A model generated the notes under the pieces. The model worked only from the letters and a program-made list of their open reading frames with translations. It did not search any database and was not told where the DNA came from. 32,000 nucleotides of DNA. It comes from Cupriavidus necator (GTDB lineage Bacteria > Pseudomonadota > Gammaproteobacteria > Burkholderiales > Burkholderiaceae). The position numbers and the translations under genes were made by a program. Every line of letters begins with the position of its first letter. Position 1 is the first letter of the stretch. Positions 10,512 through 15,920 of this stretch are shown here, piece by piece. Location of the stretch: contig NZ_CP066019.1 of the NCBI RefSeq assembly GCF_016127575.1, positions 1,710,001 through 1,742,000 of the forward strand, given 5' to 3'.

Positions 10512-11798
10512 TTATTGCCCGCCGCCGCGCCGCAGGAAATCCACCTGCGCCGGCCGGCCAGGCAGGTCCAGCGCAGCCATCGCCGGAGGCATGCTGGCGA
10601 TGGTCTTGCCGGCACGCAGCACCCGCAGCCGCGTGGCGCGCAGGCGGATCGCCTCCACCGGGTCGCGCGCCTGCAGCAGCACCAGGTCGGCGCGGCAGCC
10701 AGGCGCCACGCCGTAGCCATCCAGCCCGAGGATCTGCGCGGGCATGGCGGTCACGGCGGCGAAGCACGCGCGCATGGCTTCCTGCCCGGTCATCTGCGCG
10801 ACATGCAGCCCCATGTGCGCCACTTCCAGCATGTCGCCGGAGCCCAGGCTGTACCACGGATCCATCACACAATCGTGGCCGAACGCCACCGGCACGCCGG
10901 CCGCCAGCAACTCCGGCACCCGCGTCATGCCGCGGCGCCGCGGATAGGTATCGTGCCGCCCCTGCAGCGTGATGTTGATCAGCGGATTGGCGATCGCCGC
11001 CACGCCGGCGTCGCGCATCAGCGGGATCAGCTTGGATACGTAATAGTTGTCCATTGAATGCATCGAGGTCAGGTGCGAGCCCGCCACCCTGCCCTGCAGG
11101 CCGAGCCGCACGGTCTCGCTGGCCAGCGTCTCGATATGGCGCGACAGCGGGTCGTCGCTCTCGTCGCAATGCATGTCGACGCGCAGGCCGCGGTCCGCCG
11201 CCAGCTCGCACAGCAGCCGCACAGATTCGGCGCCCTGCGCCATGGTGCGCTCGAAATGCGGGATGCCGCCGACCACGTCGACGCCCATGTCCAGCGCGCG
11301 CTTCAGGTTGTCCAGCGCGCCGGGCGCGCGCAGCACGCCGTCCTGCGGGAACGCCACCAGCTGCAGGTCCAGGTAGGGGCGCACGCGCTCGCGCACGTGC
11401 AGCAGCGCCTCCACCGCGAGCAGCCGCGGATCGCACACGTCCACATGCGAGCGGATCGCCAGCAGCCCGCGCGCCACCGCCCAGTCGCAGTAGGCCAGCG
11501 CGCGCTCGACCAGCGCGTCCTGCGTCAGCATCGGCTTGAGCTCGCCCCACAGCGCAATGCCTTCGAGCAGCGTGCCCGACTGGTTCACGCGCGGCAGCCC
11601 GTACGACAGTGTGGCGTCCATATGGAAGTGCGCATCGACGAACGGCGGCGTCACCAGGTGGCCGGCCGCATCGATCTCGTCGGCGGCGTGCGCGGCCAGT
11701 GCCGGCTCAACCGCGGCGATGCGGCCCGCGGCAATGCCGATATCGATGTCGGTGCGCCCGTCGGGCAGGTTGCAGTGCCGCAGGATCAGGTCGAGCAT
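10512..11798 (-). CDS. codA: cytosine deaminase
   Basis: 428 aa that aligns along its length with my memory of E. coli CodA. Matches include PPFVDAHFHMD (vs PPFVEPHIHLD), NQSGTLLEGI, DLQLVAFPQDG, VGGIPHFE, VDMHCDESDD, SHLTSMHS, RHDTYPRRRGMTRV and FGHDCVMDPWY. Confidence 0.9.
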   Translation of the reverse strand: MLDLILRHCNLPDGRTDIDIGIAAGRIAAVEPALAAHAADEIDAAGHLVTPPFVDAHFHMDATLSYGLPRVNQSGTLLEGIALWGELKPMLTQDALVERALAYCDWAVARGLLAIRSHVDVCDPRLLAVEALLHVRERVRPYLDLQLVAFPQDGVLRAPGALDNLKRALDMGVDVVGGIPHFERTMAQGAESVRLLCELAADRGLRVDMHCDESDDPLSRHIETLASETVRLGLQGRVAGSHLTSMHSMDNYYVSKLIPLMRDAGVAAIANPLINITLQGRHDTYPRRRGMTRVPELLAAGVPVAFGHDCVMDPWYSLGSGDMLEVAHMGLHVAQMTGQEAMRACFAAVTAMPAQILGLDGYGVAPGCRADLVLLQARDPVEAIRLRATRLRVLRAGKTIASMPPAMAALDLPGRPAQVDFLRRGGGQ

Positions 11799-11844
11799 GG
11801 AGGTCTCTCAGGCAGGAGGCACGGCGATACGGCGATGTTCTCAC

Positions 11845-11862
11845 GGCGCCGGCTCCGGCGCC
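11845..11862 (-). repeat. GC-rich intercistronic palindrome between the TetR gene and codA
   Basis: ggcgccgg-ct-ccggcgcc has perfect 8-bp arms. No U-tract follows on the minus strand. Confidence 0.7.
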
Positions 11863-11868
11863 ACGGCG

Positions 11869-13320: not shown

Positions 13321-14643
13321 TCAGAACACCGTGCCGTCGCTGATGATGGCGAACGGCGGCGCGCCACCCGGGCGCCGCTTGGCGGCAATGCGGCGCCCCG
13401 CCGCCCAGGTGCCGCCTTCGAGCACGCGCGCCAGCGGGAAATTTTCTTCCTGCAAGCCAAGCGCCTGGCGCACGCCGTCGGCCACCAGGTCCAGGCCGGT
13501 CACGGTCAGCGCGCGCCATTCGACGATCACGGGCTCATCCACCGCATGCGGCACGGCGGCAAAGCCGGGGTCGCGCGGCACCATCAGCTCGAAGTCGTAG
13601 AGCAGGCCGCCGTTGCGGTATTCGGGCAGGCCCGTCAGCGCGTCCAGCCCGGTCACGGTCAGGCCGGCGTCCTCCAGCGGCTCCAGCAGCGAATACGTCA
13701 GCCATTGCGTGAGCTTGTGGAACGGCACCAGCCCGCCCGGCGCGGCCGGATGCCGCCAGCAGTCGCCCAGCGACACGCCTTCGACAATGATCCGCCCCGG
13801 CCATACCGGCCCCAGGCCGACCAGCAGCGTGCGCAGCAGGAAGCCGGCGTCGAGGTGCCCGTTGACCGCATGCGCCTTCAGGTAGTCGTACAGGTTGCCC
13901 AGCCGTGCCGGCCGGCCGAACAGCGCCGGGGTCGCCTCCATCACCTCGCCGAGGCGGCGCAGCAGGCCGGCGCGGCCTTCCAGCCCCACCAGCGGGTTGT
14001 GCTGCGCGACCTGGAAGGCGTGGGCGATGCTGTCGGCATCGATGCGCTGCAGCCGCTCGGCGTCCGCGCGCAGCGGATCGCCCGGCGCGGCCGAGAAGCC
14101 GCCGCGCGCGAACAGGTCGAAACTGGCCACGCCCAGCCCTTCCGAGCGCGTCAGCACCAGGTCGCTGGCCGGATCGCGGTAACGCCAGTCAGGGCCGGCG
14201 CCGGCATCGAGCAATACGCTTGGAATCACCAGGTCAATGCCGATGCGGGCGCGCTCCTCGCGGTGCTCGGGCCCGCTCAGCGCGGCACGCTCGCACAGCA
14301 CCTGCCACCGGTCCGCGCGCTGGTCGACACCGGCGCTTTCAAAATGGCGCCAGCGGCTGTGGTACGGCACCTGCAGGTCAGGATAGCGCTGGCGGATGGT
14401 GCTGGCGACATAGTCGGCAATGGCATGCACGCGGTCCGGATGCCAGGTGAAAAGTTCGGACGCGCCGCTGGCCACGTTCTCGGTGACCGCCGCGCAATGC
14501 GTGCGCACCGCCTCGGCACACAGCAGCGCCGAAGCGGGATGCCCTTCCGGTACCGGGCTCAGCCAGCCGGCACCAGGCCGCATCTCGTTACCTGTGCCCT
14601 GGCGGTCCATGCCGGGCTTGCCATCCTCGGGAAACATCGTCAT
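13321..14643 (-). CDS. URC4/Urg3-family protein (DUF1688)
   Basis: 440 aa starting [11 protein letters not shown]; I recognise it as the URC4/DUF1688 family as annotated in bacterial genomes. Recognisable blocks include [25 protein letters not shown] and LPEYRNGGL. Its ATG overlaps the upstream stop as ATGA (14643-14640). The 612-aa track ORF is an over-extension into the upstream gene. Confidence 0.8.
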
Positions 14644-15878
14644 TCGTTCAACCCCCTGCCCTTTGCCAGGGCCAGTTCGTTCGCATCCGGCGGCGTGTAG
14701 TGCGTAAAGTAGCCCGCGGCCACCTTGGCATCGATCTCGACACGGGCGTCGGCGGGAATCAGGGTCTCGGGGATGGCCACCTGCTCGACCACCTCGATGC
14801 CCTGCGCCACCAGCGCGCCATGCTTCATGTTGCTCATCGACGCCCAGCGGTCGATGCGGCGGATGCCCAGCCAGTGGAACACATCCGGCATCAGCTCCTG
14901 GAAACGCATGTCCTGCACGCCTGCCACGCATTCGGTGCGGGCAAAGTAAGTCTCGGCACGGTCGCCGCCCACCTGCCGCTTGCGGGCGTTGTAGACCAGG
15001 AACTTGGTCACCTCGCCCAGCGCGCGGCCCTCCTTGCGGTTGTAGACCACCAGCCCGACACCGCCCTGCTGCGCCATCTCGATGCACACCTCGATGCCAT
15101 GTGCCAGATACGGCCGGCAGGTACAGATGTCTGACCCGAATACATCCGATCCGTTGCATTCATCGTGCACGCGGCAGGCCACGCGGGTTTCAGGCTTGCC
15201 CAGCTGGCTCACGTCGCCGAAGAAATACAGCGTCATGCCGCCGATGGGCGGCAGGAACACCTTCAGGTCCGGCCGCGTCACCAGTTCCGGGAACATGCCG
15301 CCGGTCTGCTCGAACAGGCTGCGGCGCAGCACGCTTTCCTTGATGCCGAAACGGGCCGCCAGCCCGGGCAGATACCAGACCGGATCGACCGCAGCCTTGG
15401 TCACGCGCACATCGCCATTGGCATGGAGGATGTCGCCGTCGGGCTTGAGCCGGCCGGCCGCGATGGCCGACATCAGCTCCGGCATGTTGATATGCGCGCG
15501 GGTGACGGCGATGGTCGGGCGGATATCCACGCCGGCCGCGATGCGGTCGGCAAACACGGTGGACACCAGGTGGCCCCACGGATCCAGCGAAACTATCTTC
15601 TCCGGGTCGCCCCACTGCGGATGCGGGCCGATCGCCTCCGCCGGCGCGGTATCGGTCAGGTCGGTGCGATGGTCGCGCTGCAATGCGCCCGCGGCAACCG
15701 CCAGGGCCCGGTAGATGGCGTAGGCACCTGCGTGAGTGCCGATCACATTGCGCTGCGCCGGATTCGCCAGGCTGGCGATGACCGGCCCGCGCTCGGCCGC
15801 CGTGGGGGCGCCCCAGTGGATAGGCTCGGCCGGCTTGTCGCGGCGTGCGTGCGAGGTCAGGACGATATGGTCGGACAT
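14640..15878 (-). CDS. URC1-type GTP cyclohydrolase II-like protein
   Basis: 412 aa starting MSDHIVLTSH. The C-terminal RibA-like domain has the zinc motif CRVHDECNGSDVFGSDICTCRPYL (compare RibA C-x10-C-x-C), then GVGLVVYNRKEGRALGE. It also has an N-terminal domain of about 190 aa that RibA lacks. ATG 15878 has GAGG 7 nt upstream. Confidence 0.85.
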   Translation of the reverse strand: MSDHIVLTSHARRDKPAEPIHWGAPTAAERGPVIASLANPAQRNVIGTHAGAYAIYRALAVAAGALQRDHRTDLTDTAPAEAIGPHPQWGDPEKIVSLDPWGHLVSTVFADRIAAGVDIRPTIAVTRAHINMPELMSAIAAGRLKPDGDILHANGDVRVTKAAVDPVWYLPGLAARFGIKESVLRRSLFEQTGGMFPELVTRPDLKVFLPPIGGMTLYFFGDVSQLGKPETRVACRVHDECNGSDVFGSDICTCRPYLAHGIEVCIEMAQQGGVGLVVYNRKEGRALGEVTKFLVYNARKRQVGGDRAETYFARTECVAGVQDMRFQELMPDVFHWLGIRRIDRWASMSNMKHGALVAQGIEVVEQVAIPETLIPADARVEIDAKVAAGYFTHYTPPDANELALAKGRGLNE

Positions 15879-15902
15879 GGCACCCTCGGTTCCCGATGGA
15901 AT

Positions 15903-15920
15903 CCTGACCAAATGGTCAGG
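15903..15920 (-). promoter_or_regulatory. RutR-type operator (perfect 18-bp palindrome)
   Basis: cCTGACCAaaTGGTCAGg matches the E. coli RutR box TTGACCAnnTGGTCAA. The core TGACCA-nn-TGGTCA is exact, giving 12 of 14 defined positions. It lies 25-42 nt upstream of the URC1-like ATG. Confidence 0.65.

Follow-up and report, generated by a model that had tools for sequence, protein, structure and literature searches.

Gene Content and Organization of the Operon

The window analyzed here is a stretch of 32,000 nt from Cupriavidus necator (assembly GCF_016127575.1, contig NZ_CP066019.1, positions 1,710,001 to 1,742,000), and all positions below, unless assigned to another locus, are counted from its first letter. 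It carries a compact gene cluster that we consider likely to be an operon for the breakdown of cytosine and uracil as nitrogen sources through the URC route of uracil degradation. An earlier reading of the same DNA, made without database searches (the original prediction), had described five co-directional minus-strand genes here, and a check of the open reading frames (ORFs) bore out this arrangement from 15878 to 10512. In order of transcription, the genes encode a URC1-type cyclohydrolase of 412 aa (referred to as urcA; 14640-15878), a DUF1688 protein of the URC4/urg3 family with 440 aa (13321-14643), a uracil phosphoribosyltransferase (UPRT) of 228 aa equivalent to URC6 (upp; 12561-13247), a RutR-like repressor of the TetR family with 230 aa (11869-12561), and, as the final gene, a cytosine deaminase of 428 aa (codA; 10512-11798). 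The stop of the URC1-like gene overlaps the start of the DUF1688 gene as ATGA (14643-14640), and the upp stop overlaps the repressor start as TGATG (12563-12559), both at the positions first reported. Of the two remaining gaps, originally put at about 70 nt, the one that separates DUF1688 from upp measures 73 nt and the one before codA 70 nt. All five proteins are exact matches to proteins of C. necator H16 (range CAJ96378-CAJ96382, with CAJ96382 for the URC1-like and CAJ96381 for the DUF1688 protein), whose genes lie on chromosome 2.

Profile searches, which had been recommended as a check on the URC1 and DUF1688/URC4 assignments, confirmed all of the family calls. The URC1-like protein matches PF12471 (GTP_CH_N, 282 bits) together with PF00925, and scores 798 bits against the NCBIfam model PRK07198 (cut-off 403). 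The 440-aa protein belongs to DUF1688, matching PF07958 over the full length of the model (465 bits). Upp matches PF14681 (UPRTase, 256 bits) and exceeds the cut-offs of both PRK00129 and TIGR01091 (269 bits for the latter), and the proposed cytosine deaminase is confirmed by a score of 829 bits against PRK07572 (cut-off 438). These assignments support the view that URC1, URC4, and UPRT are encoded side by side; membership in the URC cluster is thereby judged from shared Pfam families and from the NCBI/RefSeq name of the exact DUF1688 sequence, which is "URC4/urg3 family protein." The original H16 record misnames this protein "uracil phosphoribosyltransferase." As had also been predicted, the window holds no genes of the Rut or the reductive pathway: Pfam scans of the other window ORFs revealed neither a RutA monooxygenase nor RutB-G.

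The URC1-Type Cyclohydrolase

Model scores rule out that the 412-aa protein is an ordinary RibA. It falls far below the cut-offs of the riboflavin RibA models (55 vs. 148 for NF001591; 42 vs. 206 for TIGR00505) and carries the URC1-specific N-terminal domain, in agreement with the URC1 identity first proposed. Its zinc Cys-x10-Cys-x-Cys triad and EGR motif align with those of E. coli RibA. Among solved structures, PDB entries 7EJ3 and 7EEV match it (E = 6e-191); the 7EJ3 chain, which the homology search assigns to Rhodococcus, is 69.5% identical to the C. necator protein over 407 aa. An AlphaFold2 model of the URC1-like protein made from the single sequence was unusable (pLDDT, the predicted local distance difference test, 35), and its fold matches are meaningless.

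The enzyme class has been named UTP (uridine triphosphate) cyclohydrolase (Zhang et al., ACS Catal 2021, as cited in PMC12507026). The structures of that paper are probably 7EJ3 and 7EEV, whose name in PDB is "GTP cyclohydrolase II." Judged from sequence similarity, the 412-aa protein is a probable UTP cyclohydrolase, and its substrate is probably UTP rather than the uridine monophosphate (UMP) suggested earlier for assays. The original prediction had also stated that the reactions of URC1 and URC4 are not well defined and that a bacterial version had not been dissected. For URC4 the first statement holds, its reaction being undefined in the literature searched; for URC1 the second is outdated, as structures of the Rhodococcus homolog are available (7EJ3/7EEV) and the class has been published as UTP cyclohydrolase.

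The label "GTP cyclohydrolase II" is attached to URC1-type enzymes in PRK07198, in the two PDB entries, and in every source record that was inspected. Within the Burkholderiales, URC1 homologs from Variovorax, Ramlibacter, Hydrogenophaga, and Xenophilus (P0368, P0384, P0400, P0412, P0427, P0430, P0433, and P0436) share 85-87% of their residues with the Rhodococcus enzyme. Since the Cupriavidus enzyme reaches only 69.5%, the Burkholderiales may have two URC1 lineages, or the gene may have been transferred horizontally between this order and the Actinomycetota.

Conservation of the Gene Cluster

To place the operon in a wider context, genomes were surveyed at one per GTDB species, and at least 589 of them contain a DUF1688 relative carrying two search motifs. 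The best 80 of these loci were examined, and each gene was counted only where the contig extends far enough; the genera covered include Cupriavidus, Zoogloea, Caldimonas, Noviherbaspirillum, Azoarcus, Thiomonas, Rudaea, and Azospirillum. The core of the cluster is conserved almost without exception: a URC1-like gene lies directly upstream of DUF1688 in all 74 loci that could be scored, and upp directly downstream in 73 of 74. A rutR-like gene follows upp in 45 of 66 loci, and in 43 of 54 codA lies no more than 10 kb away on the same strand. In 19 loci it comes directly after rutR. The co-occurrence of URC1-like, DUF1688, and upp genes, for which a neighborhood survey had been called for, thus extends over three proteobacterial classes and Rhodococcus, where the order URC1-DUF1688-UPRT is likewise accompanied by a 4-nt overlap. 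The DUF1688 family as a whole comprises 2,524 clusters at 50% identity.

Additional genes accompany the core in some genomes. In many genomes of Cupriavidus and Caldimonas, rutR and codA are some 4.8 kb apart, and the space is taken up by four genes for a BMP-family ABC transporter (one for the binding protein, one for the ATPase, and two for permeases), for example at 12828-17520 of locus L007, at 12592-17130 of locus L028, and in about 20 other loci. This transporter is probably a nucleobase or nucleoside importer. It is absent from C. necator H16 and its closest relatives, and the H16 operon encodes no dedicated uptake system. In Betaproteobacteria bacterium GR16-43 (locus L059, 970-8711), co-directional genes just upstream of the URC core encode an aldehyde dehydrogenase, a pyrimidine-nucleoside phosphorylase, a PhoD-like phosphatase, and a 5'-nucleotidase. 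This setting clearly belongs to nucleotide catabolism and suggests a complete nucleotide-to-urea catabolic island.

Predicted Fold and Function of URC4/DUF1688

An AlphaFold2 model of the DUF1688 protein built with 47 homologs is of high predicted quality (mean pLDDT 90.6; predicted template modeling score, pTM, 0.89), with only residues 1-20 predicted to be disordered. These residues are missing from homologs outside Cupriavidus; the predicted start, which overlaps the URC1-like gene, is kept in many Cupriavidus loci. When the model was compared with PDB using Foldseek, eleven significant matches were obtained, all of them Qng1/QNG1 proteins (DUF2419), with E-values from 4e-10 to 3e-7, a probability of 1.0, target-normalized TM scores of 0.70-0.74, and sequence identities of 13-18%. 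The first match outside Qng1 has an E-value of 0.26. A Pfam search of the protein up to E = 10 returned DUF1688 only, and a search of PDB found no solved structure for any sequence relative of DUF1688. Relative to Qng1/DUF2419, the predicted model makes DUF1688 a likely structural analog or remote homolog, and not a member of the same sequence family.

Qng1 is an N-glycosylase of the helix-hairpin-helix (HhH) fold that frees queuine from queuosine-5'-monophosphate. It has an invariant K199 just past a beta-hairpin and an invariant D231 located 32 residues further on, and its active site holds the carboxylate of the C-terminal residue (PMC9881137). Tagging the C-terminus abolishes Qng1 activity. 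We looked at the corresponding regions of DUF1688 in 150 representatives of clusters at 50% identity. The C-terminal residue is Phe at the same position in 146 of the 150, and the protein ends in exactly SDGTVF in 96, so that both families have a strictly positioned aromatic residue at the C-terminus. K310, directly after a predicted beta-hairpin (295-307), is 94% conserved, and each of the 144 members aligned has an acidic residue at E341, an apparent parallel to Qng1, in which a conserved Lys is likewise followed some 30-40 residues later by invariant acidic residues. E341 sits at a loop-to-helix junction (GLPEYRNGG) that recalls the Gly/Pro-Asp signature. Two aspartates, D350 and D294, never vary, and seven arginines are at least 95% conserved. 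In contrast to Qng1, DUF1688 is about 100 residues larger.

Because the AlphaFold2 model matches only Qng1/QNG1, we propose 5-phosphoribosylurea as the substrate of URC4, which would split it into urea and ribose-5-phosphate. The chemistry proposed for the two families would be the same, namely hydrolysis of the N-ribosyl bond in a 5'-phosphorylated ribotide, and they would differ in the leaving group, which would be urea for DUF1688 and is a 7-deazapurine for Qng1. The proposal agrees with the yeast assignment, according to which URC1 and URC6 of Lachancea kluyveri turn uracil into 3-hydroxypropionate and ribosylurea, the latter being broken down to urea by URC4 (PMC7530994). No paper in the literature searched connects DUF1688, URC4, or urg3 with either Qng1 or DUF2419.

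This assignment has to be weighed against three points: the likeness to Qng1 rests on a predicted structure, searches with HMMER and with the DUF1688 profile against PDB sequences detected no sequence similarity between the two families, and the DUF1688 residues named as equivalents of the catalytic K199 and D231 are guesses from spacing. The URC pathway could also operate with URC4 in some other role, for instance as an enzyme acting on ribosylurea itself, as a hydrolase of a ring-opened ureidoacrylyl-ribotide made by URC1, or as an accessory subunit of URC1. Yeast urc4 mutants are reported to accumulate ribosylurea, not its phosphate. PMC7530994 for its part says only that URC4 degrades ribosylurea, and the 4-nt overlap that couples translation of URC1 and DUF1688 in Cupriavidus and Rhodococcus would fit a complex of the two proteins as well. 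Yet the ribosylurea of yeast could come from an accumulated nucleotide that was dephosphorylated, the many invariant arginines suit a phosphate-bearing substrate, and the sole structural relatives are N-glycosylases preferring a nucleoside 5'-monophosphate. We therefore consider a role other than 5-phosphoribosylurea N-glycosidase unlikely.

The Regulatory Region

Upstream of the URC1-like gene lie three elements that may together control the operon. The one closest to the gene is a RutR operator, a perfect palindrome CTGACCATTTGGTCAG (15904-15919, minus strand) located 25 nt upstream of the URC1 ATG, which agrees with the E. coli RutR consensus TTGACCAnnTGGTCAA at 14 of 16 positions. The palindrome and the co-occurrence of box and gene across genomes bear out the proposal that the operon encodes a RutR-type repressor with a matching operator. 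Of the surveyed loci with a rutR-like gene, 43 of 47 have a RutR box 31-116 nt ahead of URC1, and none of the 21 loci without the gene has one. This pattern is unambiguous, and Fisher's test gives p = 7e-14, a value that overstates independence as the loci are phylogenetically related. In most loci, the box upstream of URC1 is the only match with at most two mismatches in about 21 kb. The regulator itself consists of PF00440 (TetR_N) and PF08362 (TetR_C_3, the YcdC/RutR type; 177 bits), and aligns full-length to E. coli RutR (3LOC; E = 1e-44, residues 27-216).

Another sequence in the window, TCGACCGGTTGGTCAA (4568-4583), was considered as a second RutR box. It has two mismatches and is a half-palindrome, and lies 46 nt upstream of a gene for a short-chain fatty acid transporter (3131-4522, minus strand), which might have hinted at a connection with 3-hydroxypropionate. 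We rejected it as probably coincidental, since it is unconserved in the single relative that aligns across this intergenic region (locus L005) and coincides with a -35-like hexamer, TTGACC.

The second element is a -24/-12 promoter element of the sigma-54 type, TGGCACAAAGGTTGC (15939-15953, minus strand), the sole exact match in the window. Every one of the 24 Cupriavidus loci has an element of this type at a fixed distance of about 34 nt from the RutR box, on its upstream side, as do 11 loci of other genera. This amounts to 35 of 72 upstream regions, where about 1.3 would be expected from background frequency. In Caldimonas, Methylibium, Sphaerotilus, Aquabacterium, and Leptothrix it occurs at equal offset despite differing flanks. 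When the upstream regions of 12 Cupriavidus species are aligned (alignment A3), a near-invariant block extends from TGGCA through the RutR box while the surrounding DNA is divergent, and within it the RutR box, TGGCA, and TTGC are invariant. The third element, a palindrome TGCACGCCATGCGTGCA (16025-16041, minus strand), precedes the -24 element by 72 nt. No other exact TGCAC-N7-GTGCA occurs in the 32 kb of the window (chance expectation 0.09), and akin GCAC-N9-GTGC sites are found at -135 to -165 in other Cupriavidus loci. From its consensus, we infer that it is a site for an NtrC-like activator.

The same block could alternatively be a sigma-70 promoter, with TAGTAT as its -10 element, that is controlled by RutR without any sigma-54/NtrC system. 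A possible weak -10 of this sequence does overlap the -24/-12 element, and TAGTAT or TACTAT is conserved right after TTGCC in alignment A3. Moreover, a sigma-54 pattern with one mismatch is not rare in such a GC-rich window (4.7 matches expected), and roughly half of the non-Cupriavidus loci have no strict -24/-12 match. Against a sigma-70 promoter, however, distant genera show GG-N10-GC together with complete TGGCAY and TTGC/TCGC motifs at a constant offset, at the excess over background given above, and a scan for consensus promoters showed no sigma-70 site at the block. The E. coli rut operon, which is controlled by a homologous RutR whose repression is relieved by uracil, depends on sigma-54 and NtrC. 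A promoter of the sigma-70 type seems to us an improbable reading of the block, and we favor a sigma-54 promoter combined with RutR control.

Proposed Pathway and Its Control

We suggest that the enzymes of the operon act in the following sequence. As expected from their family membership, CodA would convert cytosine to uracil, and Upp would combine uracil with phosphoribosyl pyrophosphate (PRPP) to form UMP, which housekeeping UMP kinase and nucleoside-diphosphate kinase, encoded outside the window, would convert to UTP. The URC1-type zinc cyclohydrolase, with its GTP cyclohydrolase II fold, would then release pyrophosphate and hydrolytically open the uracil ring, yielding 5-phosphoribosylurea together with malonate semialdehyde, a three-carbon fragment that would later become 3-hydroxypropionate; these products are suggested by analogy with GTP cyclohydrolase II and by the end products urea, 3-hydroxypropionate, and ribosylurea known from yeast. 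Hydrolysis of 5-phosphoribosylurea by URC4, with its predicted HhH glycosylase fold, would release the urea, which would be split by enzymes encoded elsewhere, and the ribose-5-phosphate would be recycled to PRPP.

On the regulatory side, the sigma-54 promoter and the NtrC-like upstream site would make transcription dependent on nitrogen limitation, and the RutR homolog would block it at the palindrome, which spans approximately +8 to +23 from a start predicted near 15927, until uracil frees the repressor, as it does E. coli RutR. Such an arrangement would act as an AND gate requiring both low nitrogen and the presence of a pyrimidine, with rutR negatively autoregulated. As to the combined claim that URC4 is a remote Qng1/HhH relative acting as a 5-phosphoribosylurea N-glycosidase and that the NtrC/sigma-54 plus RutR circuit operates, we see about an even chance that both halves are true.

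Several further points speak against this interpretation. The literature searched yielded no experimental work either on the operon itself or on a URC4 protein from any bacterium. The products given for URC1 were deduced by us and not taken from the UTP cyclohydrolase paper, to which 7EJ3 and 7EEV are themselves tied by inference. Uracil as the ligand of the regulator is an analogy with E. coli RutR, and the regulator scores below the NCBIfam equivalog cut-offs for RutR (196 vs. 368 for TIGR03613; 176 vs. 230 for NF011584), for which reason we call it RutR-like. Finally, codA and upp alone would serve salvage equally well, and Pfam scans of the window ORFs found no linked gene for the degradation of urea or of malonate semialdehyde.

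The last two points would also fit an operon devoted mainly to pyrimidine salvage, in which CodA and Upp, both classical salvage enzymes, feed the UMP pool, and the URC1-like and DUF1688 proteins do something other than degradation, such as making a specialized nucleotide-derived metabolite or cofactor. Genes for the use of urea or of a three-carbon product are not linked in the window, and databases still label the URC1-like protein "GTP cyclohydrolase II." We nevertheless regard salvage as very unlikely to be the main function. The riboflavin RibA models are clearly not matched at their cut-offs, the sigma-54/NtrC-type promoter indicates nitrogen scavenging, and the core in Betaproteobacteria bacterium GR16-43 adjoins nucleotidases, a nucleoside phosphorylase, and an aldehyde dehydrogenase. 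In addition, uracil degradation in yeast genetically requires the orthologous genes (PMC7530994 and PMC3869809). Degradation of cytosine and uracil for nitrogen is thus the reading that we retain.

Comparison With Known Pyrimidine Degradation Systems

The gene cluster as such is not a new observation but a further instance of the known URC system. Linkage of URC1, URC4, and UPRT in bacteria has already been reported (PMC3869809, citing Andersen et al., 2008); together with the RefSeq name of the DUF1688 protein, the solved Rhodococcus structures, and the published UTP cyclohydrolase, this leaves no room for a claim of novelty at the level of gene content. What the present survey adds is the conserved core, the detail of the predicted RutR, sigma-54, and NtrC-like regulation, and the predicted fold of URC4.

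The closest parallels are the URC genes of L. kluyveri and the urg1-urg3-urg2 genes of Schizosaccharomyces pombe, which are likewise clustered and encode the same set of families (GTP_CH_N with GTP_cyclohydro2, DUF1688, and UPRTase). The S. pombe orthologs urg1, urg2, and urg3 are induced by uracil (PMC2174524), and the C. necator operon has a uracil-type repressor and its operator. Unlike the genes of either yeast, those of C. necator form a bacterial operon with translational coupling, and control in L. kluyveri is exerted by the zinc-finger factor URC2 instead of a TetR/RutR repressor and a sigma-54/NtrC-type promoter. Compared with yeast URC, codA is an addition in C. necator that would extend the input to cytosine, while urea amidolyase (URC3,5), a URC8-type reductase, and a permease are not linked in the window. 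The Rhodococcus cluster has the same two-domain URC1 architecture with its zinc cysteines, the same gene order, and the same overlap, but belongs to another phylum and has no adjacent rutR or codA.

With the rut operon of E. coli, the C. necator operon shares a homologous regulator, a near-identical operator palindrome, and an apparent logic in which a nitrogen-regulated sigma-54 promoter is combined with repression relieved by uracil. The enzymes under this control are entirely different, with no RutA-G homologs in the window, and rutR is divergently transcribed in E. coli, whereas it lies inside the operon in C. necator.

Other Features of the Operon and Its Surroundings

Directly 3' of the DUF1688 stop, between it and the upp start, is a perfect 15-bp inverted repeat (13290-13320, minus strand) that would form a very stable, GC-rich hairpin; no U-tract follows it. 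At the equivalent position, other species of Cupriavidus also have GC-rich hairpins, though their sequences are unrelated, and in other genera the gap between DUF1688 and upp is short and has no hairpin. The hairpin may act as an intercistronic stabilizer or a partial terminator, and so set how strongly the proximal genes are expressed relative to the distal ones.

Directly downstream of codA is a gene for tRNA-Leu(CAG) (10330-10416, minus strand). It has its own near-consensus sigma-70 promoter (TTGACA-17-CATAAT, 10456-10484), which begins 28 nt past the codA stop, and no terminator was detected between codA and the tRNA gene. The URC regulatory region is directly adjoined on its upstream side, on the same strand, by a gene for an Acyl_transf_3 membrane acyltransferase (16155-17255, minus strand), which keeps this position in about 21 Cupriavidus loci and has no evident functional tie to pyrimidine catabolism. 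Two further features of the window are unrelated to the operon, namely a gene for a 592-aa fusion of NUDIX, metallo-beta-lactamase, and winged-helix domains (5204-6982, plus strand) and, after it, a tRNA-Arg(ACG) gene (7071-7147, plus strand).

Significance

Of the four pathways of pyrimidine degradation, URC is the one understood least, and URC4/DUF1688 has been its unexplained enzyme since 2008. The interest of the operon accordingly remains in two things, the reaction of URC4, for which the Qng1-like fold turns a "conserved unknown" into a specific hypothesis that can be assayed, and the conserved control architecture of NtrC/sigma-54 plus RutR. C. necator H16 is genetically tractable and industrially used, and its delimited operon offers a convenient bacterial system for the biochemistry of the URC pathway. 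The findings would correct the widespread misannotation of URC1 and DUF1688 proteins, and the RutR-controlled, nitrogen-gated promoter could become a uracil-inducible expression tool, like urg1 in fission yeast. If the role proposed for URC4 is true, the carrier cycle from PRPP to ribose-5-phosphate would be closed, with the ribose phosphate serving as a reusable handle for dismantling uracil. If the proposed control is true as well, the URC pathway of the Burkholderiales would have taken on the NtrC/sigma-54 plus RutR circuit that is known from the unrelated Rut pathway.

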